The notes under the pieces: model-generated
The model's input: only the letters and a program-made list of their open reading frames with translations
Database searches by the model: none
Told to the model about the DNA's origin: nothing
Made by a program: the position numbers and the translations under genes
DNA from: Lingula anatina
Lineage: Eukaryota; Animalia; Brachiopoda
NCBI GenBank assembly: GCA_051362555.1
Contig: CM120641.1
Location: forward strand, 41,732,401 to 41,796,400
Direction: 5' to 3'
Length of the DNA: 64,000 nucleotides
Part shown: positions 6,858 through 36,200 of the stretch, one piece after another
Position numbering within the stretch: the stretch's first letter is position 1
How the letters are laid out: each line of letters begins with the position of its first letter

Positions 6858-6907
<50 letters not shown>

Positions 6908-9816: not shown

Positions 9817-9860
<44 letters not shown>

Positions 9861-10573
9861 TTTATACCATCTTAAATTGGCAGATCAACCATCGACGAAC
9901 AAGCTAGTTCCCTTAAAACATGTAATTTCAATGTCGAAAGAGAATTCAAAGCCATTTAATAGTAAAGACAATATGTAAGTTTGCATGCATGGATGCATAT
10001 TATATGTGTTTCTCACGCTTCTCTCTTTAGCAATTGACACAGATGTGTCGTCTGAATGTTGCATGGGTGATTTTTCTTTTCGCAGGTGTTTTTGCCTAGC
10101 GACCACCCCGAGACCTGGCTCTTCGCAAAGATGTGGTATAACAATGCTGACGCCACCTACCACCAATCCGTCTCTCATCTTGGTAAGTTACCCGTTTTGC
10201 AAACGAATTATATTAATATAAGCCCGAAAATTGGTCTAAACGCAGTACTCTAGTAATAGAGAGGTACATGTGGTGTTAAAAGATGATCGAAATCTAGTCA
10301 AAGTCTGCTGGCTTCACTCAGCCTATATTTGTCTACTTTAAGTAACATATTGACTCACCTTTTTTAAGAAAAAGGAAAGGAAACAACCACCAGATTTATC
10401 TGCATGGGGGTAGACCTAAGTACTAGTAAATGCTTAGGTGCAATTCTATATACATACGAAACAATCGAAAACACACAGACACGTAAACAAACATTTGCCA
10501 TATTTCCTAAATCACCAAATAATTTTGCTGTCCATCTCTCACTTTTTCATTATTATAATTATCATTATAATTA

Positions 10574-10614
<41 letters not shown>

Positions 10615-12452
10615 CTGTTAGGATTCACGCATCTTTTGATCGAGGGTTTTGCACTTGCAAGCCACAGAAACCTGTCCACCTCGCATCCCGTCTTCAGACT
10701 GCTTGGACCTCACTTTCTGGACGTCATGGCAATTAACAAGTGAGATTTTCGAAAATACAAGGTGTAAATATAAAAAATGACCACACAAAAAAAAATGAGA
10801 CGAGACTTCTCAGCGTTTTGCTTCAAGAAGTAATAGAATAACATCATTTTTATTTATGCAGTTGAGACCAAAAGCTAGTTAATTTTTATAATTTGATTTG
10901 AATGTTTTTACTTCAGAATCATGGTAGAAAAACATAAAAGTACATTTAATTGTTGGTGTATTTCGAATAAACATGAACTAGGTAAATACAGAGTAGGGTT
11001 TTATAATCCACAGATTACAGTATTTATAACATACATATAATACCTTATTTAGGTTGGCGGTTAATTTTCTGGTCGAACCAGGCGGCTGGGTAGATAAAAC
11101 CATGAGCTGCGGACGGGATGGCATGCTTCAGCTAATTTGGAAAGAGTAAGTCTATCAGTTTCAACTATGTTTCAACTGCAGTCGAAAACAAAAACAAGAA
11201 CTCCATGTTCTATACCCATAATGTGGGTTGGAACACATATAAATGTGTAGAATTAATAATAAATAAAAAAACTGGAAATTTTCAACAACTTTCCCTTTAT
11301 AACCAAAGTGTCTTATCAAAAACCGTTGAAAAATTACGATCAATAAGTTCTTTTTCGAGCTCCCAGTGAAGGAAATTGATCTGTCCCGAAATAGGAAAAA
11401 AGCTGGAAAAAAAAGCTCACTATTTTGTCTACTGTTTTGGATATGGTATGCCGTGATCATGTATATGTGCTGAAATACCCAGGGGAATCAATTTTATTAA
11501 TTTTAAGGATTAACTCTCATATTATGATTTTCACGGTATTCTGAAATGAAATATTGTATTTCACAGGTTTGCCAACTGGAGATTGGATGTCAATGGAACA
11601 CTACCGAACTTTCTGAAGGAACGTGGGGTAAATAAAAAATGTCTTATATATTTGCTTCATAGCTTCCTAATATATTGACCTTTGACCAGTTACACGCATA
11701 TGCATACCCCCCTCTCCACGCACACACTCAACAAACACATGTAGATAATGGTGCACGCACGCACGGGTCGCATCTTTACAATGAATTCACTTTCGATATA
11801 TTTCATTGATAGTTATCTAACCATCATGTTTCTTTTCCTTTTTGTTGCACAGCTGTTGGATGAAGAAGTCCTTCCAAACTATTACTACCGCGAGGATGCC
11901 CTGCCTTTGTATTGGATTATCAAGAAATACGTCAGCACTATAATTAACCATCATTATGGTAGGTCTCAAAACATATGCAATTATGCCATACACTGTTCTT
12001 TCCAGAGCATCTATATAAAACAACTGACGAGAACATGTTAATCTTTTTCTAATTCTTTTATTTTTCCTCTAATTCTTTCTAATTTTTCTAATTTATTTTG
12101 AGGGGGTGGGGGAACGGGGGAAAGGCAGTCACTCCCGAATCTATGGGGACCATAATACAATAAAAATATTTTAAAATGACCAGCTAAAAGGATATTGTAG
12201 GATAACCAGCTGTTGCAAAATGTTTTCTCCGTGTTTTTATTTATAGATACGCCACAGAAAATTGCTGATGACTACGAGCTTAAAGACTGGAGACAAGAGT
12301 TGGAACTGGAACAAGAGAAGGGAGGAATGGGGGTGAAGGTGCGTCACAAGGGTGCTCTTTAACACCTTAAACTTTGTACACGAAGACTTTTTTCATGCAG
12401 ATTCTCAAACCTCTGCTTCCCTTGAATACCGACTCGGAAGAATTACATTCCG

Positions 12453-12495
<43 letters not shown>

Positions 12496-14422
12496 AGTGA
12501 GTCCGCCCGATTTTTTATCCACGGCATAAGGTGTCATTTGTTTAAAACAATTTAAAGGACGATAAATATTCTTCATAACGAGATAATGGACTTCATAATG
12601 AAATTCGAATGGTCAGTATTAATTGATTTTTGGACATTATTTTTAGGGAATACCTGGTGACGGGGTGTTCAGCAGCAATGAAGAACTGATCGTGACCTGC
12701 ACCTCTGTCATTTTTATCTCCAGTGTGGTGCATGCGTCCGTGAACTTTGGACAGTTCGCGTCGTACGGTTTCCCGCCAAACTACCCGGCCTACTTGAATG
12801 GCATGCCGCCGACGGACAAGGTAAGCCTGGGTGAATTTATATTTCGGCGAAAATACATAATTTTAGTTTTTGGAATGTGTATGCTCTGAGTGTGAGCATG
12901 TCATGATCAGGAATTAAAATTACAACAGATTTCAAACCTTCCTCGACGAGATGGAAATCCAAAAACGAGTATATTAAGTCCTATGCAAAAATATTGACTA
13001 CTGTACTGATATTCTTCGATTTTCAAATACAGATCACCAGAAATGCTGTGCGACTTTTTTGTACGATATCAGAGAGAAAAGTTTACATTTAGCTTCTGTC
13101 GGTCAGGATAAATCTATCAAACAAATCTTTAATTCAATTTTTCAACAATTCAAACGGGTAAAGCTGGGTTAATATACTCGTATTTTTTCCTGACGCATAA
13201 AAGTTCGTAAAAGTTGTTTTGAAATGAGACATAGAATCCAAAGAATGTGTTATTTCTCCTTATATACTTGGCAATCAATATTTTTTTGTAATTTTAATTA
13301 AGTAGGCCTAAAGTGATTTTAAAAAGCCAACAAACACATACCAATTCACAGACTCGCTAGTTTAAAATTCTGCAGTAACTTGTGTTTATGCGAATCAAAT
13401 ACAAAAGCATAGCTGTAAATTACAATCTAAAAATTCTTTTTTCAAAGACCGTTCAGTGTTCTTTATTATTACTCTATCGCAACCTTATTCTGAGTTGAGG
13501 TAATAATCGATGTTTTTCTTAACAGAATCCGGTGTCTGAGTCAGATATCATGAAAGCCCTGCCAGACAAGTCCCAAACCTTGGAAATTATGGTGATCACA
13601 AAACTTCTTTCTGAAAAGGGCACAAACAGTTTGGGGGATTTTGAAGTCCAATATTTGTTCGATCCTGTCTCCGTCGAAGCCGCTGATACGTAAGTGACAA
13701 TGTTTTCGGTGACGAACATAGAAAAATGAATTGTATTATAATCCTATAGATTTAAAGATGCATACAAAGTCAATTTTTTGTCACAAAAAACAACCAAATG
13801 CCAGCATATAGTTTCAAGTAGTATAACTAAGAGAATTACCAAAAGGCATTGTTTAATTTTACCCGAAAATGATGTTTGAACGGATTCTTCTGCTGGCATT
13901 CTAAGCTGTATGTCAATGGGGCAGGAAAGTAGGTCACGAAAGTAGGTTAAATTTACAACCAAAAATTTAAAGAAAGGAGCAGTCTAAAGGTCTTTTATGG
14001 CTGATCTATTCAGTTTATCCCTTGGCATGTCGAATTTATTTGAGTCATATAAGAATCTAGTAGAAGTGGTTTGCATGTGTTACTGGGAATCCACGCTCCA
14101 CCGATGCTCGGTTCGTATGTACCTTTAAACACTTTTGGTGCACATTTTTATGTGCCCATTCGTACAATATAATCACATCCATAACCACGATCGTATGTCA
14201 TTAACCCTTTTCAAGTATACTGTTTGATGTAAAAATGGCCCAAGAGATAACAATCCATCCTGTTTCATACGTGTCCACTGTGTACCCCTCTCTATTTGTA
14301 ATTTCAGATTTAGGCTAGAACTGGCGGAGCTGGGCAAACAAATCGCAGAAAAAAACAAGAGCCGCTTCCCGTCTTATCTCTACCTGGACCCTACGTTTAT
14401 TCCAAACTCTATCAGCATATGA
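6331..14422 (+). CDS. ALOX: Lipoxygenase (PLAT/LH2 domain + non-heme iron catalytic domain), 15 coding exons, ~675 aa
   Basis: Exons 6331-6825, 7587-7631, 8533-8670, 8861-8961, 9366-9498, 9706-9801, 10086-10182, 10622-10739, 11053-11145, 11567-11627, 11853-11958, 12247-12338, 12647-12820, 13526-13689, 14308-14422. All introns are GT-AG and in phase (2028 nt). Motifs: PLAT TGD..AGTDA and FPIHRW; [17 protein letters not shown]; WLFAK; iron-binding [15 protein letters not shown] and HASVNFGQ; C-terminal IPNSISI*. Confidence 0.96.
6858..6908. repeat. (AAT)n microsatellite in LOX intron 1
   Basis: Direct reading. Confidence 0.9.
10550..10613. repeat. (TAT)n microsatellite abutting the LOX exon 8 acceptor
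   Basis: Direct reading; it produces the poly-I and poly-Y ORF artefacts. Confidence 0.9.
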
Positions 14423-16236: not shown

Positions 16237-19200
16237 CCTTTTATTTTTGGCAACTACTGACTAATCACGTAACGATATCACACAAGTACTCTACACATAC
16301 TGAACAGTTCACATAATATAATGCAACGCCTGTCTTCGTACCCACAATTGGCGGGGAGGTGAGCTTCTCTCACATCTTGTGGCCATTGTTTTGCTCTTTG
16401 CCAACTTTTTGCTCCATTGTATGGGGGCTGTATGGGTGATCAATTTTAATTGAAATTTGATGTTGTCACAATCCCCCCATCTTGTGACTTCGTATCATAT
16501 TATATTTCGTCATTTTAATAAACGACAAATTTCAGTCATGGGAACTCCTTTCATTTTGAGCAAAAACCCGGAGCTTCGTTGTGTTTGTGCTACATAAATA
16601 AATATATTTACGTTAGTTTGGTTAGAGAGGCCTGACGTCGCAGTATATCCTATACACATGCACGAATGCGGTTCTAGGGCACTAACACGACTAACCGCGA
16701 ACATGACAATGTTACGCTGACGGTAGTACTATACATGTATATATATTCTCAGTCGGAGGACGTCCTGGCTCCTGGTCAAGAATAGTCTTTAAACTGGTCA
16801 AAGAAAAGGTAGGCTGGGCCTTGTTTTTAGATCATAATTATGTGGTGAATTGTATTAACTTAGATCTAAGTATTATAAGTAATGGTGTATATATTCCGTT
16901 TCTTATCAAAAACCCATAAACATACAATCCAGTATATAGGAATGAAGGATCTTTGTAATCCCAAGCAGACTTGGTGTAGAAATGAAAATGAAAATAAAAT
17001 ATGGTAAAGTCCGGAACTTCCTGTGTGATAAGAGTCTGTTGAACAGTGGGAGCGAAACAGCGGTTTACATGCTTTTACATTTGTGTACAACTTGACACGT
17101 GCGTGGACTCTACGAAAAAGAGAAAAAGATATAAGACGTTTTTGGGTGGTAAAGGTATAGGACGGGCAATATCTCCAAATCCCCGGACAACTTAAGGTAA
17201 TTCATACGCTTCGATAAATATAAAATTTTATTTGTCTAAGTGTGTTTCTGTATTTTACCCCCCCCCCCCAACTTAATTTTTTACCTGAGCTATTTTGGCC
17301 GTCTATTCACTGTACAATATTGGCCTACATTCGAAGGTGAAGCGCAGCAATATTTATGACACCTCAACGTGCGGCTCAGGTGAAATAACAATGACCTTGT
17401 TACTGTCATTGTGGATCAACACAATGGTTACAAGGTTTGTTTAGGGGATCCTTTCGGCGATTTCTTTTAAAATCAAGGCGGTCTCCCGTGACTCTACGTG
17501 TACAAATACAAGCTCTGGAATAGTATCAACCACAGGTGTGATATTGCAGTGTCATCGGACACAATTGTATGCGGACCGAGAGACATTAAGGTGAGCTCGG
17601 GACACCTACGATAATTTACATATCACTGACAAGTGATGTATCGTGTACTTTTATACAAAGCAGGGATGCACAGTCTGGCTCACATACATCTGCCGAGGTA
17701 AGTTATACATACAGTAGGATCCAACATAATGTTGATAAAGTTGTAAAAGGCACCAGCAGGTTTTTGGCTTGTCGCTGTTGCCCTGTCGTTTCAATGAAAT
17801 CGATGTTTATTATCTTTCAAATATGGAACGTTTGCTACATTGTGCTATTTCTCATTTACGCCACCCATATCTTAACAATGTTTGGTTACCTGTGATGAAA
17901 TAAGTATACCAATGGGGGTAGACATTATGGTGGTTAACAATATTCATGATGAAATATTAAAAAACACTTTATAAGTTTTAGCATAAACTTGGGTTCAGTA
18001 CAACATGAATTACACCAAGAAGTCAACGGAGAAAGGGAAAAAAGATAACATGTTAAATTATACATGCACATTGAGGTGCACGAAAAGAAACTAAGCCGGA
18101 GTACATTGAATATGCAATGGGAAATATTCATCGACCCAGTCTAGAATAGCCACCAATATTACAAAATATATCAACAAGTCATATATAACAAAGACTGAAA
18201 TGAATATAAGATTTTAGCTCTAAAGCTTTAATTGCATACGGTTTTTGTTTTAAGCGTTTATTTAATTGATACAATCTTGTAATGAATACGAAGGAATAAG
18301 CATTAATGATCTTCAAGAATGGTTTAGAATTAAACGACCATCACGCTTTCAAGTCCCAAACTGACCAATTCTCTGTTAGGATGTTTTAAGATATCATTTT
18401 CCTTATTCGGCTTAAACCGCGGGAACAATCACGTGAATTCCTTGCATTTTCACTTGCCTAAAATTGCAGTTTAAGAGTTACAATTTCACTTCTAAGAAAG
18501 GATATCACTCGCTTGAACTCCTCAAAAAAGATAAAGAGACTTCATAAAAAGAACATCGGGGTTTTTTTTTAATCGCTAAAATTATTCTGTTTAAATACAT
18601 AATATATTCTGTACCTATCTAAAACGAAGACGAACCACCACCACCCCCCCACCCCCCCAAAAAAAAGAATAAATAAGAAGGGATATGGAGACTTCATTCA
18701 ACTCCCTTCTCCCAAGGGGGTAAAACCTGGTATGCAACTCACAGATATACTCCATGTTGATCCAAATTCCGACATATTTCAACAATATATAATCTTATTA
18801 CTTCTATAATAAGGAGAAATAAGATATTTACCCAACCCCACCTTTTTCCTTGAATATCCTGGACCACTAGCGTCGATACTTACAACAATCTCATACAGAT
18901 GGTGCTACTTACCCAGTAAATAGCAAGCACGTGTAATTTGATCATTCTATCCACTGCACGCATATTATCACGCAGTTTTAGAAGTATTCACCACGTTTTC
19001 TCGCTCACACAGACCAAACAGTTTTCGTCTTCCTTTTTGTTGTGATATACTAGAGTAGTCTGGAGCGGATGCCTTTGAAAGAGCTAGGTACATGTAAGTA
19101 TGAAGCCAAAATTTTATAACTAAGGGACAAGCTGTTATCAGCAGAGTCACTCGCGTTATCGTTTGATATTCTAAAGGGTATTGTTTACCCTCGACGAGGT

Positions 19201-19451
19201 ACGAGTACCTACGTCAGGTCAGTGGTATGAAAATAGGGACGCTCTGATGAATGTGTGGTTGCCGATTTGTAAAGTTGATGACTGGGATAAGGTGAAAATA
19301 GTCTGTCGCGTATAAACCCTAGTTATCTTCGTGACTTGTTTCCTTTTTTTTCCTAGATAAATACAGCTCACTACCAATACAGTAAGACATATAGGCCTAT
19401 ATACAGTACGGATACTATACCAGTACCTCAGTAGTAGAATAGCACGCCGCT

Positions 19452-20773
19452 ATGGGGGGTATGTGGTCCAGTGGCTATGCACTGCCAACCCAGCCACCTC
19501 CCCCTGCCGACCTAGACGCCGAAGTGAACAAAATTGACTACCTAGATCTCGCCAAGTACGACTGGCCCTTTGAAAACTTGGTTTTGGAAGGTGGCGGCAC
19601 GAAGGGGACTGCATACCCAGGGGCTTTACAGGTAGGCGTCCGATGTTAATTTTTGTTTATTTATTAAAATTGATAAAGAATATGGCGCCCACTGCACTTA
19701 AAAAACAAATCGTAAACTAAAGTGACCTCCATTCACTTTGTTGTCCTTACCATCAAAAGCGGTATCAACCGTGAAACTTTCAATGAATCATGGGTATTTA
19801 TTATCCGTAATTTGTGTGCGCTGTGACAGATGATACCTAAGATGTTTTTGTTATAAATAGATGATTGATAGCATGTTGAAATAGAGAAAAGAACATGGGC
19901 GTCTAAGGTGAAATAATTTTGCAAATATGCCTTTTGGGACGACATCGGTCGGTGTTCTAACCTGAACATTAACTATTTTCTTCTAAGTCGGTGGAAAACG
20001 TCTTTTGTGAGTTTTGGTTGACCGCAAAGCACATTATTGTTTGTATTGTTAGCAAGAAATGTGCTTTTAAGGTGTCCAAACAACTTTACTGAAAACTTGT
20101 TATTAACGCTGTGAATAACAACATTATTATCGTCCATAGGTTGGTTTAGAAACTTTGCCAACGCTTTAGGTTTGTGGAAAGGAAATCATATTGAAAGACA
20201 AAAAAAGACATAACTGAACACAATATTATGGCGAAAGTGTTGGGCTATGTGGTTTGATTTCAATCCAACGTTGTGGAAAAAACGCATGTTTACCTGTTCC
20301 ATATCCAATCTGTGAATACAACTGCATTTTTAACGCGTCGTGTCGCTGAGGTTTTTTCAACATGCACATATTTTGTGATCGGTGAGCTATTAATAAATTT
20401 TCTCGTTTTAAGCCTCAAGCTTAGATCCACAGGTATTGTTGCGTGTATACTGGTGTGTTAGAAAAGCTTACCGAAATACGGAATACGTGTGAATTTGTCT
20501 TTTTGCCGATATCCCCTGCACCTTACTGCTCCCATACACCGCCTATCTGAGATACGTTCACTCTCTAAATCAAGGCAGAGCAGAAATTTACTAAATATTT
20601 TTTATATATATTATATATATGGCATATAACTGTATATACCACGGAGCATAGACAACAATGTCTGAACTGGATGGAAAAAGTTTTAGCCGCTTTGGCGCTG
20701 TCTGTGGATAGTTTATTTCTACAATCACAATAACTCCACCAATGACATTAATGACTTACCTCCCTAATAAATC

Positions 20774-20842
<69 letters not shown>

Positions 20843-23627
20843 TACCGAGTTCACCTGAGTTCACACTTGCTAAACGTGTACTTAGTTCACCTGCTTCGGC
20901 ATCTGTTTATCTCGTCTCGTTTATTTTTTTGCGAGCCCATAAATGAAAAAGCCATTCCGGTATTTAATTTACCATTTAATGTATGTTTATAACGGCCAGT
21001 GACTAATTTTGTGTGTAGATATGTGTTCAACCGGCATACGGACCAGAAGACGTATGCATTAACAGGTTAAGGACTCATTCCCACTGACACTATCGGTCTA
21101 CGTAAACTGATCCAACTCCGCGGGGACTCTCGCTAAATGCAATCAGTTTAACAGATTAACACACCTCCTCTTGTTTTCAACGTAGTTGTTTTATCATCAT
21201 CTTTTCTACATTCTATTCAACGCCCGGGGGAGGCGTGTCATTCAGTTAATCCGATTGTATTCAGCAATGGTCCCCACGGAGTTGGATCGATCCACGTAGA
21301 CCGACAATGACAATGGGAAAGAGACCTAATTTATCAATTTGTCAATGAGCCAACTAGTTCTTGCTCATACATTGCACTTAATGCCTCCTTTATAACATTA
21401 TTTTGCTTTTTGAACATCAGTGGTGTGTTTTTAGTACTCAAAGTTGACTGCTTGACAGGCTTTTTTACACAAATTTCAGCCTACTGGTTTGAAGAGGGAT
21501 CTGTGAAGAGTTGGTACACAGCCTAAAATATTCCTCAAGCAATCCTTAAAATGTTCTACTTTCTTCAAAGGGTTAATCAGGGTTAAATCAGCGAAAACTT
21601 TTTTCACTCCAGATCTGACACACACTACCCCAAGGTCGGTTTTCTCCCTACGCCGCAGTTTTTGAAAGGGTTTATCAAGGTTGAATCAATGACAACATTT
21701 CACTCCACGCCTTACCTTTACCAGGGCCTCAGATTAATTATGTTACGCTTTTCGCCAGCGCGACAAAGAATCTTGTCATGAATTAGTCAGACACATCTTA
21801 TCTAGTGAAAATTCCATCTGTGTCTCTGGTAAAGGTGTACGTACGTTGTCCCCGCGTTTGAGGCTTGGGTCCATTGTACTAGTACGTGTGCAAGTTTGGG
21901 GAAAGTAATCGAGTAATGCGAAAATCCATATTGTCATTAGAAGAGAATGTCGGCACTAATTTTTCATTGATTGACATCATATACTTATCACATAAAAAAA
22001 CTGTTCATTCTTGACAACTGACGGTGTGTCTTATTGATTGCAGATGAGCAATACATTAATTGCAATGCCGTTTCAACATCTGTTCTGGGTAATCTCACGC
22101 AATATTTTATATGGTGCGCTGGATAATGAGTACACAAAAACAGCATTAAAACAGTTTTTAAACATAGCACGAAGTGCCCGTTTTGCCGCCCTAAAATGCT
22201 TTTAAATGCTAGTGTACCGCTGCTATTTGTTTAAAGTTATAAAAACTACGACATGTAAACTGATCGACTGAAACACGGTAATTTATCTTCTCTGTTCATT
22301 TGGCACTTTGCACTTGAATTTGTTATGAGTCTTTCCTTAACCTTGCATACAACGGGGCTGTTTTTTTTAGTATTTATTTGTGGAGTCTACTGTACTATTT
22401 CATGTAAACTTCTTTTCAGTCTTTGTAACACTGATATAAGGTGAGTAAATACTGTAGCAGACCTCACATGGTTGTGATCAACGGAGTCGTCACGGCTGAG
22501 CAATGAGTTAATGGTTTACGCCGTGATACGGGGAATGCAAATATTATTTACCAGGTTGCACAGGAGGCAAATTTGAGAAGGGAGGGGGGTCTACACACAC
22601 ACACACACACACACACACATTTTAGTGAGTTTGATGTAGTATTTCAAAGACATCTTCAACTATTCATTCGCCTCAAAGAATTTTATAGGGCCCCTAAGCT
22701 ATATGCACAGCTTCCTACGCCTATGACTGACTGTTAGACCCCATTCCCACAGATTTTAGATCGATCTATCCTTGTGGGGAGTCTCACTAGATTACTGTCA
22801 GCTTAGCCGGCTTAAATGTCTGTCCCGCCTACTAAAAGCTGTAAGGGGGTAATTAACTACCGTGCGCGTTCGGCTGACAGCAATTTAGCGTGAACCCCCA
22901 GGGAGTTAGGTCGATCTAGGTGGATCGATCTAAATCTATGAGAATGCAGTCAGTCTGTCTAGAAACGCAATATTTTTTTAAAGGTGAATATAATGAATGG
23001 GTTCTAAATTTGGACACCCTTCAAAACGGTTCTTATTTTCCTGTTGGACAACGCCTAAGACAAAGTATTCAAACGGTGTTAATCCTTTAGTTAACGACAT
23101 AACATGATAATGCTAAACCACGTAGAATTTTAAAAAGTTATTAGAAAACTAGTCACGAAGAATTACGTGAATAACAGGCCACAAACACACTGAAAATAAA
23201 TAACGTACATTTATCATTAAAGAATTTATGTACAATCACGTCTCCGATTACGTCTCCAATAAGACGTGTTTGAAAAGTGGGGCTTAAGCTTTTTGAAATG
23301 TATTGTAACTCAATCGCAAACTTTTCAAAACATAATAAAGCTCCATTCCTTGTCGACCAAAAAAGAAAATACACACACTGCTAACGGACTATAAACTCAT
23401 ATTAAAGAAATTACGTAATGAATCTTTAAAGAAACTATCTAAAATTATTGAATAACATGTTTCCAATTAAATGCCTCTAACATGACGTGTTTGAAAATAG
23501 AGTGAACATTTTCACGCACTCAAAAAAACAAGTAAACCCTCTTATGTGAAGAGAGTTTTTTATTGGAAGCGGAGAAGGGAATAGACAAAAAGAAACTGCT
23601 CACTATTTTTCATATTCTGAATCCTAA

Positions 23628-23672
<45 letters not shown>

Positions 23673-24400
23673 CTTGTGAATATGAAGGAAATGAATTGAT
23701 TTATTTCGGAAAGTGCTTGCAACTTTGAAAATGCAAAATTATTATTAATATTTTACCTTAATACTTTGTTCATTTGTCACTCTTCATTCCAATTACCTAA
23801 ATTTTGTTTCGCTTTGAAGACGTTTTTTTTTGTGTGTGTTTTCTAAATCTTAGTAAGTAGAATATAAATCTTTCAAATTAAATATTCCCCAGGTTTTAGA
23901 AGATGTCGGTATACTACAGAGTATCAAGAGATTTGGTGGGGCTAGCGCAGGGGCGTGCGTCGCAGGTCTACTCAGTCTTGGATATAAACCGGGAGACATC
24001 GCCGCCCTGCTGAATCTGGACCAGAAGTCTATAACTGACGGTGAGTCGTTGCCATACGTTTTCTAATAAATTATGGAATACAAAATAAACTGTGTTCAGA
24101 TTTCTAAGATATGGGAGCCTACAATATCATCTCTTGTGTATTTGCTATTAAATGTGTTTAATTACATTTTTTCATTTAAATTGCACTGCATGTAAATGTA
24201 TATTTTCTGATATACTAATATATACTAGTATAGCCTTTCATTATTTTGCACAACAGCACGTATTCACCATGTTTTGTGTATTACTTTCGTATTTCTTTCT
24301 AAGTCGACATTCCTGGCGCATATAGAGTTTCACCCTGGCTGCTAAGTTATAAGCCCTACATCATGCGGATTCTCGAACATTTCTACTCGAAAGATTTCCA

Positions 24401-24469
<69 letters not shown>

Positions 24470-27034
24470 GAAGTTGGCAGGGTTTGGTTAATGCCCTTCG
24501 CCATGTACCCAAATAACGACTTAAATCATTTTTTTCAGATGCCTGGGGAGGTTATCTCTCATTGTTGCCGAATTTTTTGCGTATGTTTGGCTGGAACCCT
24601 GGAGAGAAATACCTGAGCGTACTGAAAATGTATGTAGAACATAAAACAGGAAACCCAGACTACACGTTCAAACAGGTAGGAAGATGCCCCAATATGCAAA
24701 AGGGAAATTGATATTTACGTTGTGTATACAGTTGTTTATCAGAAATTTGCCTTGACACAGAAATAGTCTGAATGTTTTTTTTTCTTAGTTCCTGGTGTCA
24801 TACTGATTATAACAGATGTTTGGAATCTTTCATTTTAGTTATATGACGATAAGAAAGTTGAATTGTGTATTATCTGCGCCAATGTCAGTAAAAAGGGCAT
24901 GGAATATTTCCACCCTAAGACAACACCGGATGTTCCCATTGCGCTTGCGATGCGCATGTCAGCAAGTATTCCAGGTGATTTTTTTTTTTTTTTTTTTTTT
25001 TTTGTAGAATATCATATGAATTTCAGTCCTTGGTCATTTATGACAAACTTAATTGCAATATCACCGGATAGGTGAGTCAGTCGAAATATTTCTCAATATC
25101 AGCATACTTTTAAAGATGAGTTAAAAACATCAATTTGGGGGAATTTCTTTCATTTTTGATTATCTCAATTGCAATTGGTTTTATGTGACAATTTCGCTGT
25201 TTTTATCTAGCATCTAAATCTTTCTTAAAATATTTTCTCGTACAGCCTTTTTTACGCTGCATTAAAACCTTATCCTTAAGCATTTGGTTAATGGATGGCA
25301 ACAGCATATTTGGTATTTAATATGTTTGAATTCAGGCTACTTCCAACCAAAAGTCATAGAGATAAAGGGACGTAAACATTACTACGTTGACGGAGGAATG
25401 CTCTGTAACTATCCCATCCATGCCTTCGACGGTGAGTCTGAAACCTCTTTTTACATTGATTCGGTTTTTGGCCCCTCTTCATTTCGCTTTTCACTTCTTG
25501 AATCTGCACAGAATGGTTAGGAAATCTATGTCAAGACCTTAATTTTTCTGACGAAGTGAACTTTTTTTCTAAAAGAAAAGACAACAAGAGAGCAAATTTT
25601 CATCATGTACATTTAAACCTAGGTTGGTTTCTGTCTCTAAGACCAAAAGATACATTCTTCAAAAAATTGGGAACAGAGGAGGATCCCTTTGACAGGCCGA
25701 CTGGAGAGCCATCTGGTGACCCGAACGTGAGGCACAGACATGAGACAATAGGAATGGTGCTGGTAAGAGATAGACAGTGCATGGTTAGAGCAATTAGATA
25801 AAGAATATATACAAGTATATATTTGTATTTATCATGCGAAATCGTATTCTTCTACATGAAAAATTATTTTACTATTATTATTTATCTATAGACTGCTCTT
25901 ATCGCTATGATTGAATGCGCTCACGACAAGATGTGATTTTAGATAATCCTTTTGTTTTTGATAATGAAAAAAATAAAACCGACAGGTTTCTCACAAGAAT
26001 TATTTTCTCTGTAGTATTCCACAGATGAACTTGATTTGATGAAAGTGGGAACAAACACACGAGATCTCGCGGAGAAAGCCACAAGGCAGAGACCGGACAC
26101 TCCCCTGGCAAAGTACGTAATTTCAGGGAGTTAGGACTCCTTGGTAATGTACAGAATTGCTGTTGTTTGGTTGGCTCGTGATCTTATAAGATAACTTTCC
26201 TGTTTATATAGGAAAAGAAGCTTATATGCATCAGCAGCCAGACAGAAATGTATATCCAAAAGAAGCATTTCTGTGGAACGTGCATGTAGTCACAAGTTTT
26301 CTGTTTGTGCTAGTTTGCGTCACTTAATTGGTGCAAAAGTTGAAAAAATGACATTTCGTTGATATGGCATTAAAAATTGAGTAATGTTACCATAACGACC
26401 GGAAACGGTCTTAGAAACGTTGGAAACGACAAAAGCTCTCAAGGAAAAAACAAAAGACTTGCTCATCAAATGTAAACTCAAAAACTAATTTAAAAAAGGT
26501 GTTCAAATAATTAAAATATTTACAAATATAAATTTATATCTCCTGTTTACCACAAGGCTTCGAGGACAAATGATGGACGAAGTAAAATCCGAAGTGGACA
26601 GGAAATCTCAAGTCATCCATGCCGCTCAGTCTTTGTTTCGGTCATTTGCTAAAAACGACTTAAACCGAGATGGGAGAATCAGTCTAACTGAATACCAACG
26701 GGCTATGAAAGAGGTAAAACAGGCATACATAAAATCATTCTAACAGCACTCACGCCAAAGATTGTCAGTCTTTTCCCTTGGATTTTTAGGCACTGTTCTA
26801 TTCGTTATGAAAGGGAGGAAAAACTGTAGCGTAATTCCATGTTAGGATCAATCTGTGTGTACTAGTACAGACTGAATGACCGCATTCAGATTCAGACATC
26901 GCACAGCTGGATCGATCTAACTCTGTGGGAGATTCTCGTTAAAGTGCAATCTATGTAATCAGCTTAATTGTCTCCTCGAGCAGCTAGAGGGTAATTATAT
27001 TTTGTGTACGCGGCTTAATTACCCCTTGGCTGCT

Positions 27035-27073
<39 letters not shown>

Positions 27074-28557
27074 CTTTTGACTTGAACCCGCCGTTCTGAA
27101 CACTGACATTCCATTTCAGCTCCAGAGCCGGGATCCGACGTCAGTTCGTGTTCTGTTTGGCGATTCGTTTGATATGGATGCCTCATTTACCGAGCTAGAT
27201 TATAACGAAGACAAAATGGTAAAATGACGACACAAAATCCAGTTGGTGTAACTTTGTATTATTTTTAGCTTTCATTTTAGAGTTTAATCGAAAGAAGGTA
27301 AGTTATTTTGTCAGTTGTTTAGTTATGTTTTGGGCTTATTGTCTGTCTGTTTGTCTGTCCTTCCGTTCTTCTGTCTCCTGTTTAATGATTTTGTATTTTC
27401 CCTGGTTGCAGGTAACGGCCACTGAATTCATGACATTTTTGGAGAATAAAGGCGTTGTCAGTCCTCTGGAATATATCCTTGACGTCTCCAACACGCCCAT
27501 CCAGTCTCTGCAGGACTACATAGGAGCTTTATTGTCCACATACGACGTCTCGTCGCAAAGGCAATATGTTAAGGTGCGTATGATAGGCCTACAAGCCAGA
27601 GATTCAGAGCCGACGAGGACCAACTTCTTTGTTTTTAAATTTTCATGTCCCCTTGTCAAGTCTGAAATTTAGCGGCGTTTGACTGTTCAAAAGATTACAG
27701 TGCCTAGCTATCACAAATGTTAGACGTGTCTGTTAACCAAGTTATGTACCATCGGATGGCTTCTGGGGAACTACAGAACTCAGATGACTGGGTACTCGTT
27801 TCTGAGTGTTGTGTATGGTTTAAACTTAACCTGTCCTATAACCGTTCGTTTTTGGAGATTTGAAAATTAAGAAGTTGGCAGGCATCGGACCTGAAGCTTA
27901 GGCTAGATGCATATGTATTATCAGTGTTAACAAACGCATCATTCACATCCTGGACATATTTGTGCGGCGTTGTAGCACTTCGTGGTGAAACTTGCTCTTA
28001 CAGAAAATGAATGGTTATGGTACTATTATATATTTTCTAGGCTTCCGATTCTGAGCGTACAATAGGTATCTGCACAGACTATATTAGTACGCTAGACATG
28101 GACATGGAGGAACAAGACAAAATTTTCCTGCGAAAGGTATGTGATTCTCACCCACCCCACCCCCTCCTCCCACCTCCGACACACAGTATACACACAGTAT
28201 GCCTTAAATATACATGTACACTGTACCTTGGTGCCTTTCCAAAGAAAATCCTAACTTTCACAGTGTGCGGATATTTTCATAATTCAAACTTGTGTACTCT
28301 TTGAATTTTTTTCTAAAAGTTATTTATTTTTTCCTTCAATCGTTTGTGATATATTGATTAAAGCAGCCAAAAGTAAAAGTTTTCAGATATTGGCAATTAA
28401 ATGTTGGGATTAAATGTTCAGATGGACCCAACCCAATTTTATATCACATTTAAATTTTTCCTTTTCCTTCCTTTTGTAGCAAGGGCGATCCGGAACTACG
28501 GCATTTTTAAGGGAATATGCCAAAAAGTGTAATATCCCACTGAAAACTCAGGAGTGA
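19452..28557 (+). CDS. Patatin-like phospholipase (ExoU/VipD-like bacterial-type motifs) with inserted EF-hand pair, copy 1; 12 coding exons, ~508 aa
   Basis: Exons 19452-19631, 23893-24040, 24539-24675, 24839-24974, 25336-25431, 25623-25762, 26015-26112, 26557-26713, 27120-27218, 27412-27573, 28041-28136, 28480-28557 (1527 nt, in phase). Motifs: oxyanion NLVLEGGGTKGTAYPGA, nucleophile GASAG, RMSASIPG, catalytic YVDGGMLCNYP, EF loops DLNRDGRISLTE and DYNEDKMVTATE. Confidence 0.93.
20777..20840. repeat. (TA)n microsatellite
   Basis: Direct reading. Confidence 0.95.
21071..21326. mobile_element. PIF/Harbinger-like MITE with long imperfect TIRs and TAA TSD
   Basis: Left end ggactcattcccactgacactatcggtctacg...gatccaactccgcgggga is the imperfect reverse complement of the right end. 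GG...CC termini, with TAA at 21068-21070 and 21327-21329. Confidence 0.75.
22737..22951. mobile_element. Related MITE copy (imperfect inverted repeats with gatcgatc core)
   Basis: gaccccattcccacagattttagatcgatc pairs with gatcgatctaaatctatgagaatgcagtc; shares the gatc..aactcc..gggga core with 21071-21326. Confidence 0.65.
24402..24466. repeat. Compound (CT)n(GT)n microsatellite
   Basis: Direct reading. Confidence 0.9.
26878..27035. mobile_element. Truncated fragment of the same MITE family
   Basis: gaccgcattc...ggatcgatctaactctgtgggaga and agggtaatta resemble 22737-22951. Confidence 0.5.
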
Positions 28558-31355
28558 TTCTGCACTCTGGACATGTTACCGGCAGCAGCCGACAAACCAC
28601 GTGCTTGTGCTGCCTACCATAGGCCATCCGCGCGATGACGTCGTTTTTGTTAAAAAAATTTGCTTCAGCAAAGAAGTGTGCACATAATACTATCCAGAAA
28701 ATATCTGTCAATATCTGTTCAGATATTTTCCCTGTGACCCTGGTAGAGGGTTATGTGCTTGGATAATATATTATAATTTATTCTCATTGTGCTATTAACG
28801 GGCTAAGTGTTGGGGGTTTTTTCGTTTGGTCGTTTACACTTAGATGCATAATAGAAAAGACCGAGAATAGGAATGAGTTTTATGACTATGCAAAACGATT
28901 CCAGTGAGTTGTAATGGTGAATGAGCACCCTAAATTCAGAGTGACAAAACAATCGGAACATATACCTTTGTTACACCAATTATAGAAAATAAAGTATGAA
29001 AATGAACTATCCATGCATGGCGATTTAATGTTCCAGTGGTTAGGATGTCTTTTTAGATTTCTTTTTTTTTTTGTTTTCAGTCATCAGAGTCGTCATCCTA
29101 AGAATTGTGTTAGGTAAAAAAAGAAAACGAAAACTGAACTGAATTCCAGTTTTTCACAAAATGCAGGATGCAAAGCATGCGATGAAAACACAGAATTTAA
29201 CGGACATGTTGTGTCATCAGTGGGTAATATGGCTGCTGGAGGTTAGAAATATGTCATCAAATTTTAAAGACAGTTTTGATCTGCATATGCTCCACAGAAT
29301 GTTCATAGCGATATCTGGATTGGACAACCAGTTTTGCTTTTAAAGAACTGATGACGTTGTTAAAAAGTACAATAATATATTATCTATTAGAATGGTCGTT
29401 GTTCCAAGGATTTCTATTTGATAACGTTATATACTGTATAATGATAATACTCACTTTGGAACAAAGTATTACCACCCCAAGTGAGAATTGTTTACAGGTC
29501 TACCAACAAACACCCAACGGCCTGTTGGCATTCAGCTATATGATGCTCTTGTGACAAAAGCGAAACGTAGCTTTTTCTTAAATATTCTGTTCCAAAATAA
29601 ATGATTGTTATCACAAAATGTTCTTAGATATAATAATCATTTAATATTCAGTTACGTTATAGCGTTAACTGATCAATTATCTACAGTCACGTTTAACTTG
29701 AACGGTATATTTTGTTTAAGAACATACACGTGCGTCCCTAGTGCGGCCTTAGGTTAAAGAACTGTGCAGAGCTGTGTAACAGTGATGCCATTTATCCTAA
29801 TTTATATTACCGTGAACAATTTAAAATGCTTGTGTTTAGCTTGCCTGTAATGATCACATAGTGATATCAACTCATCTCTGATTGGAGAATAAATAAAGAT
29901 AATACTAGTTAAAAATAAAAAAGCAGATTTAAAGAAGAAATATTGGTGTGTGTTTGTTATGTTTTAAGCGTATTTATTATATAATTTTATACGATTGGCC
30001 TTTTCAAATGTGCATCAACATGCAATATCTGCACGCTTTTGATAGAAAAGATATGTCACGCTGACACAATGCTGTTCTGGTTGATTTTATTAAGTACATC
30101 GAGACCTGGACGCCACTGGTTGGCCTAAAACTTAGTATTCCAAACTAGAATTTATACTTATAAAATAAGAAGTGTGCCATGCTGTTGTCGCTCTATTCCA
30201 ATAAAGAAAACCACATAGACATTTCGGAGATGAAAGAACGAAATTCACATTCTATGGCCCAAGGCTGGATATTAAAATATCATGAGGAATATTTGGTCTA
30301 GTGGCTTTGTACTACCAACCCAACCACCGCTTACCAGTGATTTAGAAAACAAACCAGCGCACACCCAATGGAGGTGAATTACCCTGGGTTAAGAGTTTCT
30401 TTGAAGCTCGGTACCTGTGTTGTGTGCTGAATCAGCTCTAAGTAAAATCATGTCCCACCCGATCTTTCTTCCTTAAAGGTAATCCTTAACACATTCACCC
30501 CATATTACTGGCGTTGTAAAGTGTAATGCATACCACTGCGTTTGCGCTCCGATCCAAAAAGACGGGTTACACCAATGAATCCACGATTTGCTTTAATAAT
30601 ATAATTAAGCCCTACTTGTCCCAATACACTTGTCACCCAAAATGTAAGTACTCAACGGTATGTTGGGCATAGTTAGGTATGAAAATACCGCTTGGTTTTT
30701 TTTGTTTTTTTTTTTGGGGGGGGGGGGTCGAGATGGAGGAACTTTGGAATCTAAGAAGGGTACACGTACCCACTGTGCGACCCCGTGGGTCTGCCACGGA
30801 GGCTGTTGTCTTGTATATCCCAACAATGTGACGCAGTTATCATTACCTGATGTGGCCTGTGAAAGTAGGGCAATACTGCGCGGTTGATGAAACTTCTACT
30901 ATTTGTATGCTGCCTTCTGTCAGGGCGTCAAAATATTTCAGCAGACTATACCCATAAACGGGCTATTCTGTGATAAATATTTCATCGCATGTGTTAGTGA
31001 GTGAAAACACGATAATATGGAAGATGTTTCATAGGGCGGTCTTTCCTGTTAGGACCGGCTGTCATTAGACAAAAGTGAACTATCCGACTTACGGACTATT
31101 GCTCAATATCAACGATGGAGAATGCATACACTGTAGCTGTAGCCTAATTTGTGTGCAGCATGTGCCCTGGATGCGGCCTGTGCTTGCTATTTATATATAA
31201 ATACGGCACATAAACCGCAAAGATGGATTCATTGAACCTACTTGATTATTCATGATGTCACCTCATTAAAGGATTCAAATAAAGGCCAGAATTTTACGAA
31301 TAGAGCAGGGAGAATCGTTCATTTGAATAGCAGGTGCTCGTGCACCTATTAAACC

Positions 31356-33195
31356 ATGGGAATAACTTGGCCTATACGCTACAAACTACCACATGAACCG
31401 CCGCCAGCTCTCGATTTATCTACAGAGGTGAATAGAAATGTGTATATCGACCTCGCCAGGTACGACTGGCCCTTTGAAAACCTCGTTCTGGAAGGCGGCG
31501 GTACGAAGGGGACGGCATACCCTGGCGCAATTCAGGTATGGACCGGTACGGGAATCGCACATAGTGTTGCCATGGTAACGGTTATTAAAATGTGATGATA
31601 GAATGTTTTATTTGACGAGAAATACTAGAATGACTCACCAAAATAAAGGAAATTCTTTGTCATAATGGTAGACCTTCACAACAATAAGTTAAACATAAGT
31701 TTATCCCTTAGAAGGTCATACAGTGTATGAGGCAAACCATAAATAATAGCACCCATAACTAAACCGGTTATGGGTGCTATTATTGTACCGTACCAGCAGG
31801 CTTTATAAATATAACAGCGTAGAAACGTATTTCAAGACATTGAGGAGAATTATCTGAGCGAGATACTCCACTAGAACGTGTTTTTTCTTTATTGTTAAGA
31901 TCTACTTTGCCTTCCCCATGCATCCCATGGCATTTTAGCCAACGGACTAATTAATTTTTATTTTTGTATTTTAGGTTCTGGAAGATGTGGGAATACTTCA
32001 GAGAATTAAGCGGTTTGGTGGTACCAGTTCGGGGGCCAGTGCGGCCGGTTTGCTCAGCGTGGGGTTTAAATCAGGAGAGATCGCCGCGTTGTTAGACATG
32101 GACCAGAGAGTAATCTTAAAAGGTAGATTCTTGATTCTTGATCCAATTAATGATTATTTGGTACATACCAATAGAGTTACGGAATGACAGAATGATTCAA
32201 GGGATTTTCATATAATTATTTTTGTTTTGGTGCAGCATACAGTATACAAAATGTCATATTTTATTTTATTATATTTTATTTTATAATAATGGCATTTTTA
32301 TTCTTGCAACTAAAAATCGGATTGCTCACCAACTATTAGAGTGTTACATGTAGAAGTAACTTAAACGTTATATTGGTCTAAACATCAAGACCCATGCGAT
32401 TGTTTTCTTACTTTTAAATAAGGACTATCTTTGACAGTAGACCAAACGAATCGTTATCACCTAGAGTATGACGTCACAAATTAAGATCTACAGCCAAAGG
32501 ACTTGCTAGATCATACTAATGCCAAAACACAGTGACTTAAAATTGGATGTAGCAATGCTTCTCATTTGTTTATAATATAAGTAAGCGACTGGTAGTCTGG
32601 CAGATATTTACTTTCGCGTGTTTTAGGATAATGGTAAAACTCACATTACTTTATACTTTACCCGTTTCAGACGCTAGAGGAGGGTATTTTTCGTTAGTGC
32701 CAAATTTTCTACGCCTATTTGGCTGGAATCCAGGCGACAGATATCTCAACTTGCTGAAAATGTGCATGAGACACAAGACCGGTAATCCAGACTACACATT
32801 CAGACAGGTGAGGCTACTCATCAACAACAAATCTTTTTTTATATTTCTCATTCATTTCGCACTTGAAATTTCAGAAAGAGAAATAGTTGACAAACGAATC
32901 CGTTGGCTTCAAGACTTTTTGATTTGAAGATTGTGATTGGCAGTTTGTAAAGTAGATTGTTTAGATCTAAATGTTTTTTCTTCAGTTATATGACGACAAG
33001 GGGCTTGAACTGTGTATTGTTTGCGCCAATGTCAGTAAAAAGAACATTGAATATTTCCACCCAAAGACGACACCGGATGTACCCATTGCGCTTGCAATGC
33101 GCATGTCTGCAAGTATTCCAGGTGAGTGAGTGCCAATCAAAAAACACTTAAATGTCCGACACTGCCAATAACATGTCAAACCATGCAACATTGTA

Positions 33196-33273
<78 letters not shown>

Positions 33274-36200
33274 AACGTATTTATACTGGAGAGTGTCTTG
33301 AACATATCTCTTGCCTTAGTGTTTTTTCAGCCTAAAAGTCTAGAAAAGACAGGGAACAAGCATTACCTTGTTGATGGTGGCTTAATATGTCCTTATCCTA
33401 TCCATGTCTTTGATGGTAAGTGTAATCAGCTTTGCTATGTTAATCGTACTATTATATAAGCGTTCTGTTGTCGATTTGGCCTTGCTCCTGAGCTGCTTTC
33501 TTTCTCATGTGGTTTCCCATTCCTGTTTTTCATTTTTGCGTTTATCTTGCTTGTGTTCCCGAAGGTAAAAAACCGTGTTTGTATGATTTCTGGTTTTAAA
33601 TTGTGCTATATGAAACTGCAGATTGGAAAATTTTAAGAAGGTCCCTTACGTTCAAAATCTTTTGAATATTTTTGTACAATTCTGTATTTTAGTGAAAACC
33701 GAATTGCCTGGGGTACGTTTTGTTCTTGAATTTAGAAAAAAATCGAAAATCATCTTTGATGGCGTTTTCCATATCGGTACATAAAACAATCGCCTCTTGT
33801 ACGGTATCTTACCTCACTTATTCCAAAGTAAAATTACAAAATGTTAAAAAAAATACACCTGTTTATTGGCTAACTCGCATTCTGTTCTATTCTGACAAGA
33901 AACCAAACCATTTTCCACCAATTAAATGTATTGCGTTTAAACTCAGGTTGGTTTCTATCAATGCGGCCAGAGGATTCGTTTTTTAAGAGGCTAGGTACGG
34001 AGGAGGATCCGTTTGAGAGGCCGATGGGACAGTTTTCAAATTGCAGACATAAACATGAGACAATAGGAATAGTGTTGGTAAGTTGTAGTCATTAAGTGTA
34101 TCGTGACTAAATGTTGAAAAGATGAAACGTTGCAACTTTTGGTACATCTAACAATGTGCTTGTGATTCAAACATGCGTTTAGTTCGAATGTTTCGATTGT
34201 TTTAAGGGTTTAAAAACACCAATCTATTGAAGTATTACAATATTTATAATATGTTGTGTTCTAAGACGTCCATCAACCCATTCATGCCACCTGTACGTTT
34301 TCATTTGACCGAAGTTTTATTTCTAGACAAAATAGTGAACTCCCTGTTCTATGCTTCTAATCTCCGCCCGTTATGCACGCGACTTTAAACTGCTAAGCAC
34401 TAAAGTTATGTAAGATATTTTTTCTGGAAATTTTCGAAGCTTAATGAGGTTAATAAATAGAATGTTTATTTTAATCCCTCTAGGTTATTATATAGAAATT
34501 GTATTTTACTTCGAACTGCGTTTTAGTATGCTACGGATGAGCTAGACCTGATGAGGGTGGGGACAAATTCACGTGACCTACAGGAAAAAGCATCATCACA
34601 AAGACCGGACACGCCTCTGGCTAGGTATGTTAACACACTTAAAGCTAGAATCGCTTTATTGCTTATATCTTTATGGTATGACCAGTTTAAGGATCCAATA
34701 CACACTCTGTGTGTGTGTCTGTGTACGGTGTCGGAACCATGCAGCAATTTATTCATTGGAGGCGCAAACTAACTGTGTAACTTTAAGTCTTTTTAGAGAG
34801 TGATTAAAAAGTCATTATAGATTTCAGAGTGCGCAACAACCAATCTAAGATGCAGAGTTTTTAATTGACATTTGTAATAATTTTAACTCATGTTATCTGC
34901 TAAGGCTGCGTGGACAACACATGGATAAGGTGAAAGCAGACGAAGACAAGAAATTACAGATTTCAAGCGCTGCGAAGACCGTGTTCAGAGCATTCCATGA
35001 CAAGGTCAGTGACCAGGAGGGAGGCATCAGCCTAGGCGAATATCGAGAGGTCATGAAAGAGGTAAATTTTTGTATAGAACACGTCCATTTTGGCAACAAA
35101 TTGGATGAATTGGAAAACGTTTGTATTTTGCTGAATTTGGTCACTTACGGTTTATTATTATTTTTTTTAAACCAAAGTTGGATTTTTGGCTCTTCGTGAC
35201 GTCAACTACGTGTGGTGTCTATTTGCAGTTGTAGTTTTACATTTGTCCAGTAGTGTTTCTTTACCATATTTTGTTGGGATTGTTTATACAATAAAAAAAA
35301 ACCATTTGCACAACTCCGCCTGCCACATAACCAACATTTGAGGTTGTATAACATTTTTACCTGCATTTCAGCTCGAAACCCGAGATTCCGAATCTCTTCG
35401 AATTTTATTTGGGGATAATTTCGACATTGACTCCACGTTTAGAGAGCTGGATTATCAACAAGACAAACAAGTATGTGTTCTCAAGTTAATTTTTTTTCTG
35501 CATTTCATGGCAACATAGACATGTCAGTACTTATCACTATAGAACATTCCAATTTTCTTTTGGGTTTGAAGTAAAAAAACAAAGTGAAAAACAATTACGG
35601 TTCAGTTGTCACGAAAAGATCGCAGTTTATTTATTTATCTTTTTATACTTTTCATTTCTATTTTCATTTAGTTCTTTTGTTCCAATTTTAAGCAGTATAC
35701 AGTTATTAGAGATACATTTTACACTCTTTACATATCTGAGAAATACTTATTGTTTTACAAGTTCCCATGGTAACGAAATTCACATTCAATGCTATTTTAT
35801 TACGAAATTTACACACACAATTTATGCACTTTCAAAATAGAAAATCCCATAATTACCTCTTTTTTATTTTACAAGATAACAGCAGTAGAGTTTTTTGCCC
35901 TCCTGGAGAAAAAAGGTGTTATAAGCCCGCTTGAGAGCACGCTTGGATTTGCCACTTCACCCATTCTATCGGTGAAAGACTATTTTAGTGCATTAGTAGC
36001 TACTGTCCACGTCTCGTCACAGAAACAATATATAACGGTAAGTTGTGACCAAAAATAAAAGAGACGGCAATTTTCTTTAAAAAAAATAACACCGAAGAAA
36101 AATAGCATTTTAAATTAGTTAATTTAAAAGAAACGCTAAAAAATGAATTTAGAAAGCGAAATCATATTTCACTTACACATGCGAGCGTTTTATCGACAAT

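Follow-up and report, generated by a model that had tools for sequence, protein, structure and literature searches.

Patatin lipases are regarded as Ca2+-independent enzymes that depend on partner proteins, dimerization or nucleotides for activation. A gene of the brachiopod Lingula anatina, referred to here as gene A, raises the question of whether an enzyme of this type could carry a Ca2+ sensor within its own chain. Gene A lies on the + strand at 19452..28557 of a 64,000-nucleotide stretch of genomic DNA (assembly GCA_051362555.1, contig CM120641.1, positions 41,732,401 to 41,796,400 of the forward strand; hereafter the window), and encodes a 508-residue patatin with a pair of EF hands. An initial annotation of the sequence had described a bacterial-type patatin with the EF-hand pair inserted inside the fold and a predicted N-myristoylation site. 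Following analysis of the locus and its relatives, we give an even chance to the view that the product of gene A is a membrane-anchored (predicted myristoylated) phospholipase that would be activated by Ca2+ acting through the regulatory segment of the patatin fold.

Gene A and the position of its EF-hand pair

Twelve exons joined at GT-AG borders gave a single open frame from the ATG at 19452 to the stop at 28557 (coding exons 19452-19631, 23893-24040, 24539-24675, 24839-24974, 25336-25431, 25623-25762, 26015-26112, 26557-26713, 27120-27218, 27412-27573, 28041-28136 and 28480-28557). RNA support was obtained for all 11 coding introns. Ten of them were among the 15 joints listed from four RNA runs, and intron 24975-25335 was covered by 17, 15 and 27 reads in three of the four runs, these reads cross-mapping on exon 4 of a paralog before continuing into exon 5 of gene A. 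Two stranded runs (X1 and X4) placed the transcript on the + strand. Upstream, a non-coding exon ends at 19093, and the joint 19093-19357 defines an intron in the 5' untranslated region (19094..19356, + strand, GT..AG) with 6 reads in X1 and 31 in X4. This spliced intron, together with an in-frame TAG at 19440, identifies MGGMWSS as the true N-terminus of the protein. An additional exon at 26212-26295 was considered and rejected, as reads link 26112 directly to 26557. The 40 read variants listed include 34 coding differences, of which 21 were synonymous; in this small, pre-selected sample none of the other 13 fell on a catalytic residue or an EF ligand. Introns 1 and 8 contain a palindromic interspersed repeat resembling a miniature inverted-repeat transposable element (window 22730-22960 and ~26840-27040), whose high RNA depth on both strands comes from copies elsewhere.

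Analysis of the spliced frame located the glycine-rich oxyanion loop GGGTKG (aa 47-52; 19590..19607), the nucleophile motif GASAG (aa 76-80, Ser78; 23938..23952), the catalytic DGG (aa 219-221, Asp219; 25389..25397), core strand 5 with ETIGMVL (aa 273-279; 25742..25762, strand E264-270 in the model of the Lingula relative P0002), both EF loops and a C-terminal tail containing ERTIGICTDY, all on the + strand and all where the initial annotation had placed them. The glycine-loop Gly was kept in 126-131 of the 134 family rows, the nucleophile Ser in 121 and the catalytic Asp in 123. A Pfam scan of single exons detected patatin in 4 of the 12, each fragment scoring under the curated cut-off, and full-length relatives passed the Patatin model (PF01734, cut-off 27.7 bits) with 102.7 bits for P0002 and 87.5 bits for P0001. 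With the Gly-rich loop, GxSxG and DGG seen in gene A itself, and the Pfam score and fold seen in its relatives, the protein belongs to the Patatin/PNPLA superfamily. Its Ser/Asp dyad is intact, and it is predicted to act as a lipid acyl hydrolase. Only 40 residues precede the core, and the chain ends ~15 residues past the last core helix. No C2 domain was matched by Pfam in any of the 12 exons or in P0002, in line with the absence of C2 proposed initially.

EF loop 1, DLNRDGRISLTE (aa 346-357; 26657..26692, + strand), has canonical ligands. EF loop 2, DYNEDKMVTATE (aa 391-402; 27198..27426, + strand), is split by intron 27219-27411 between DYNEDKM and VTATE; its ligands 1, 3, 5 and 12 are present, and Lys, not Gly, occupies position 6. 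Judged by the definition of an EF hand as a paired helix-loop-helix with ligands at positions 1, 3, 5, 9 and 12, the pair qualifies, both loops carrying the ligands and the helix-loop-helix pairing being seen in models of two relatives. The Pfam scan, in which patatin and EF-hand had been expected together, detected an EF-hand in the EF1 exon of gene A (E 4.5e-5) and EF-hand_1 in P0002 (29.4 bits).

The fold of gene A was taken from AlphaFold2 models of two relatives, namely P0002 (predicted local distance difference test score 88.3, predicted template modelling score 0.85) and an actinobacterial member (92.5 and 0.90, respectively). Both models ran from strand 5 through a long helix, two helix-loop-helix units and a further helix into strand 6, which is followed by a loop and the final helix. 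They bear out the claim of an insertion within the fold, with the EF pair falling between core strands 5 and 6. The inserts matched calmodulin-type EF-hand pairs in the middling range (Z 7-8.4), and the cores matched VipD with Z 26.6 and 25.2 (root-mean-square deviation, rmsd, 2.5).

The part of the chain between these two strands is the 'regulatory segment' of patatins (PMC12871566, in its accessible text, here and below). Its median length was 176 aa among presumed eukaryotic members (n = 104) and 167 aa among bacterial ones (n = 30), compared to 48 aa among short relatives (n = 38), making the segment of the EF family ~125 residues longer. In VipD the segment ends in strand 371-375 and loop 376-386, and this loop opens when Rab5 binds (PMC12871566). 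Core strand 6 and the following loop of gene A, ERTIGICTDYISTLDMDM (28053..28106, + strand), correspond to this strand and lid. The family motif RTIGI-TDY-D falls on VipD 373 onward, within a weak profile stretch (VipD 373-414) that is below significance alone, and the structural alignment spans residues 38-495 of the model on 31-421 of VipD, covering strand 6 and the lid region. R457 and D477 were kept in essentially all family rows. In sequence, the EF sensor is linked to the element that gates these relatives, and we infer that the two are also physically coupled.

Distribution, descent and N-terminal signal of the family

Family members were collected with P0001 and a 56-row alignment as queries, and full-length relatives share the Patatin and EF-hand annotation. 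Named animal members came from nine phyla (Placozoa, Cnidaria, Mollusca, Annelida, Nemertea, Brachiopoda, Echinodermata, Hemichordata and Cephalochordata), and protist members from EukProt and MMETSP records. No vertebrate or arthropod name appeared among the named matches listed, most matches being unnamed. Databases label the animal proteins 'uncharacterized', 'hypothetical', 'PNPLA domain-containing' or 'Calmodulin'. Several Patatin plus EF-hand clusters exist in the ESM Atlas, and among those shown three were mainly animal and one was 73% bacterial; the cluster name is 'EF hand/EF-hand/Patatin-like phospholipase domain-containing protein'. The domain pair is thus already recorded automatically (ESM Atlas, UniRef 'Calmodulin', RefSeq 'uncharacterized protein'), as labels only. 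No published study of a patatin with EF hands was found in the accessible open literature, in which a supplementary cd07207 tree (Figure S2, PMC3688537) could include eukaryotic members. The accessible text of PMC12807876 and PMC2763107 held nothing relevant to an EF-bearing patatin family, and 'EF-hand' did not occur in that of a 2026 review of patatin control (PMC12871566). The family is apparently unstudied; we found neither a family name nor a mechanism.

In GTDB, 39 of 49 loci were intron-free family members in Myxococcota-type and Actinomycetota genomes, a few of them contig-cut or split. The neighbours of the bacterial copies were plainly bacterial (LacI, BipA, Lgt, MlaD), and the 99 open reading frames (ORFs) beside 20 copies revealed no conserved neighbour, operon or defence context. 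A dual-specificity phosphatase gene adjoins the patatin in three actinobacterial loci (L012, L014 and L027). The bacterial distribution is patchy, since in one class the 61 genomes sampled included 4 carriers (G005, G010 and G016 are of the same class as G006). Of 29 metagenome loci that matched the exon-4 border pattern, 21 were spliced family genes; the intron at this border is common to them by search design, and one locus (L067) has further breaks close to aa 61, 156 and 233, like gene A.

Trees were built on 247 core columns with the insertion excluded; they contained no human PNPLA sequence. In the careful tree (40 rows from 172), insertion-bearing proteins formed one clade against short ExoU/VipD-like patatins (100/99), with the quick tree (72 rows) in agreement, and the family is sister to these short proteins. 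Bacterial members formed one clade (100/99), placed together with protist-type rows (95/89). The approximately unbiased test did not reject a monophyletic group of the 23 non-bacterial rows (p 0.103), five of which are unnamed. A transfer of the gene between domains of life is likely from these relationships, and a direction from eukaryote to bacterium is favoured. Recent transfer from bacteria to animals was rejected in view of the trees and of introns common to other spliced members. Judged from its sequences, the family is an old one, intron-bearing in animals and found in marine invertebrates, protists and some bacteria. The term 'bacterial-type' consequently suits the catalytic core of gene A but not the gene, which belongs to an old animal family with shared intron positions. 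Among viral contigs, 13 pattern matches yielded no confirmed family member; the best viral fold matches were giant-virus patatins, none of them named as EF-bearing.

The N-terminal MGGMWSS (19452..19472, + strand) is a predicted N-myristoylation signal, with a true N-terminal Met-Gly (Gly2) and a small residue at position 6 (Ser6). Of 103 presumed eukaryotic members, 49 have Gly as their second residue, compared to 2-12 members at each of positions 3-12. Ser or Thr was found at position 6 in 37 of the 49 Gly2 members and in 9 of the 54 others (p 1e-9, a generous value since the rows are related). The pattern was present in 28 of 47 named animal proteins, from 8 of the 9 phyla. The enrichment points to selection for the signal across the family and, with the fixed N-terminus, upholds the site proposed initially, the lipidation itself being predicted. 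None of 94 bacterial-type members had the signal, and 91 of them carried the EF loop pattern. Gly2 and intact EF ligands were not associated in the 103 rows (29/20 vs 33/21, Fisher p = 1.0). Because the two vary independently, the recoverin switch logic suggested initially is not supported as the logic of the family.

Other arrangements were seen among relatives. Three proteins (P0148, P0173 and P0176, likely from protists) carry the family sequence behind an N-terminal Patched/NPC1-type sterol-sensing membrane domain, a fusion that fits a need for membrane anchoring. Seven insertion-free short patatins that start with Met-Gly (P0045, P0162, P0186, P0188, P0192, P0198 and P0201) group together and are possibly from giant viruses or protists. 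P0175, a related patatin of 894 aa, has a C-terminal C2 domain, a different route to a possible Ca2+ sensor on the same core.

Proposed Ca2+ control and the neighbouring genes

How might Ca2+ act on gene A? Myristoylated Gly2 would keep the enzyme constitutively at the membrane. Ca2+ would bind to EF1, and probably to EF2, and the helices leaving the EF pair would then shift strand 6 and the following loop, opening the active-site lid; this loop is the equivalent of the one that opens on Rab5 binding to VipD, and the internal EF sensor would stand in for the partner protein that the relatives require. In the last and weakest step, the released polyunsaturated fatty acid may feed a lipoxygenase encoded next to gene A. 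On this account the family offers a candidate enzyme by which cnidarians, molluscs, echinoderms and amphioxus could free fatty acids in response to Ca2+. As a natural family whose regulatory segment houses a sensor, it also offers a direct test of the model of patatin control set out in the accessible text of PMC12871566, and its intron-free bacterial members should suit expression and structure solution.

Retention of the loops bears on whether the pair binds metal at all. In all 30 bacterial rows one or both loops retained ligands 1, 3, 5 and 12, and the loop that was kept differed by lineage (L001-L036), being EF2 in Myxococcota-type rows and mostly EF1 in Actinomycetota, which argues that selection has acted on metal binding and not on shape alone. 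A full-ligand loop was retained in 63 of the 104 presumed eukaryotic rows (both loops in 24, one in 39), gene A keeping both. Neither loop was intact in the other 41, mostly with a segment of similar length, as could be the case if the EF pair were a structural element or docking surface in an active membrane lipase whose activity is independent of Ca2+ and set by a partner, dimerization or a lipid. PNPLA9, which dimerizes via a helix of the regulatory segment (PMC12871566), offers a parallel for such an arrangement. The bacterial rows speak against a purely structural pair, and we consider this alternative unlikely, though it deserves serious attention.

A tandem paralog downstream of gene A is a further point in favour of this alternative. 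Gene B (31356..37184, + strand, 503 aa, RNA joints for 8 introns) repeats the 12-exon plan of gene A at 67% identity, keeps an intact dyad, and is 94% identical to L. anatina LOC106166111 (P0001). Its loops read VSDQEGGISLGE and DYQQDKQITAVE, with the EF ligands lost, and its N-terminus, MGITWP, has lost the myristoylation consensus. As gene B is expressed, the fold either works or persists without a sensor. Full splicing of its EF1 exon was seen in 6 reads (run X4), and the loss of EF1 in the RefSeq protein P0001 is therefore probably a gene-model artefact caused by a wrong internal donor. Genes A and B constitute a natural pair, with the sensor intact in one and lost in the other. Between them lies a remnant of the first codons of gene A (30282..30371, + strand; tblastn 59% over 22 aa, by translation), in a region (bin 30222-30482) with zero reads in the four RNA runs.

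The joint loss of both features in gene B, and their joint presence in gene A, would also suit an enzyme in which Ca2+ binds to the EF pair and controls location, through recoverin-like exposure of the myristoyl group, or inhibits by closing the lid. Inhibition has a precedent in PNPLA9, on which Ca2+ acts through calmodulin (PMC12871566), and the sign of Ca2+ regulation in gene A could be either. The lack of association between Gly2 and intact loops, the bacterial members that have EF loops without a myristoyl signal, and the distance of ~345 residues between Gly2 and the two EF hands argue against this version of Ca2+ control, which we hold to be improbable.

Activation of the anchored enzyme by Ca2+ has to be set against several of the above observations, namely the 41 rows with neither loop, the sensor-free gene B, the lack of Gly6 in EF2 of gene A and the uncertain sign of regulation. 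Two more weigh in the same direction: the myristoylation pattern was found in none of 7 named cnidarian members, and the link to the lipoxygenase has been seen in one genome.

This lipoxygenase and the tandem paralog, which had gone unmentioned in the initial annotation, were recognised here. The PLAT-lipoxygenase (6331..14422, + strand, 15 exons, ~675 aa; Pfam PLAT and Lipoxygenase, open all-GT model) is the direct upstream neighbour of gene A, its stop lying 5030 bases before the gene A ATG. It is intact, with iron-ligand motifs and the C-terminal Ile present and exon borders taken from a sequence model only. The best PDB match of its first exon was coral 11R-lipoxygenase, and it has Ala at the position that we take to set S versus R stereochemistry. 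The protein begins with MGNCQQG, a possible N-acylation site. The presence of this gene suggests an oxylipin pathway.

Outside the window, no clear association of lipoxygenases with the family emerged. None was matched in the 29 metagenome loci, most of them under 7 kb and mostly too short, and no lipoxygenase motif was found in 2147 ORFs of the GTDB loci; one weak tblastn match was seen in L018 (E 1.8e-4). The long family proteins scanned contained no lipoxygenase domain. Among Myxococcota-type genomes, 7 of 11 carriers had a lipoxygenase match compared to 16 of 57 non-carriers (G006 class, p 0.036), a difference that genome size and kinship confound. Of 28 actinobacterial-type carrier genomes, none had a match at E <= 1e-10. 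The label 'arachidonate 5-lipoxygenase', from the Joint Genome Institute (JGI), was attached to 7 of 120 listed proteins (P0245, P0256, P0265, P0285, P0289, P0331 and P0333), all bacterial-type and ~500 aa long. The two that were scanned had no lipoxygenase domain. A fused reference gene model could be the source of this label. The family accounts for this and the other misleading automatic label, 'Calmodulin'.

The 28 genomes without a strong lipoxygenase match, and the lack of a conserved neighbour among the bacterial ORFs, agree with a housekeeping role, whether or not Ca2+ regulates the enzyme, in which the substrate is not a signalling phospholipid, gene A encoding a neutral-lipid lipase or lysophospholipase that adjoins a lipoxygenase by chance; patatin folds do include phospholipases A1 and A2 and triacylglycerol lipases (PMC12871566). 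Since the closest solved relatives (VipD, ExoU, PlpD and CapE) are all phospholipases, and a myristoyl anchor suits bilayer substrates, we consider such a role quite improbable. More tentatively, and with real doubt that every part will hold, we propose that this is the first patatin family with a Ca2+ sensor of its own, widespread but overlooked; that it would provide the polyunsaturated fatty acid that marine invertebrates use in oxylipin signalling, here beside a partner lipoxygenase, taking the role of cytosolic phospholipase A2 (cPLA2) by allosteric lid opening rather than C2-driven translocation; and that Myxococcota and Actinomycetota may have received it, already Ca2+-gated, from a microbial eukaryote.

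The rest of the window contains an Otopetrin-family exon (38036-39028, - strand), a Gln-rich frame lacking a Pfam match (47679-50626, + strand) with motifs that we take to be the Sp box and buttonhead box of Sp1-family transcription factors, and long acidic, repeat-rich open frames, also lacking a Pfam match (57113-57553 and 59629-60804, - strand).

Comparison with known systems

The resemblance to ExoU/VipD-like patatins noted initially was confirmed at both levels. These proteins, defined as cd07207 in the accessible text of PMC3688537, gave the best PDB sequence matches of the family (E 1.3e-28 for VipD, 2.7e-22 for ExoU), and VipD was the best fold match of the P0002 model (254 aligned residues, 32% identity at the Z of 26.6 and rmsd of 2.5 given above); we accordingly place the family provisionally with this subfamily. 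VipD, a phospholipase A1 (PMC12871566), and the family share the dyad and the order strand 5, regulatory segment, strand 6 and lid. Matches of the family models to VipD, PlpD and patatin ranged from Z 22 to 27. Gene A differs from VipD and ExoU in the ~125 extra residues of its regulatory segment with the EF pair, and in being an endogenous spliced animal gene with a myristoylation signal, whereas VipD and ExoU are injected bacterial effectors. Such effectors carry a C-terminal Rab5- or ubiquitin-binding domain, and gene A, having none, is not an effector proper; the best NCBIfam match of the family, VpdC, reached 54-71 bits against a cut-off of 1000.

The CBASS (cyclic oligonucleotide-based antiphage signalling system) effectors CapV and CapE (fold match Z 23-24) are likewise patatin lipases that respond to a second messenger, which activates them. 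The family scored 25-31 bits with their NCBIfam models, far from the cut-off of 200, and no cyclase family was present among the 99 neighbouring ORFs of the 20 bacterial loci, so that we do not regard it as CBASS.

PNPLA9 (iPLA2-beta; 6aun) ranked below bacterial patatins by fold. It shares with gene A the patatin core (Z 21.8) and an intracellular location, and responds to Ca2+ indirectly, via calmodulin. It differs in its ankyrin repeats and in a structural-alignment identity of 13%, and the EF pair of gene A sits in the chain itself.

Recoverin and the neuronal calcium sensors, like gene A, combine a myristoylation signal and EF hands in one chain. In a recoverin-type switch, the myristoylated Gly is followed immediately by four EF hands, to which it is coupled. 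Gene A has two, from aa 346, embedded in an enzyme far from the N-terminus and not associated with Gly2 across the family, and is not of this type.

A functional parallel that we propose is cPLA2-alpha (group IVA), which has a Ser/Asp dyad, a related fold (Z 15.8) and the Ca2+-triggered release of fatty acid envisaged here. The C2-type cPLA2 is not recorded in insects, where a novel form has been inferred (PMC6375067, in its accessible text), and no insect name appeared among the named family matches listed. Where cPLA2 has an N-terminal C2 domain, gene A has none, and Ca2+ would control the catalytic domain itself instead of recruiting the enzyme to membranes.

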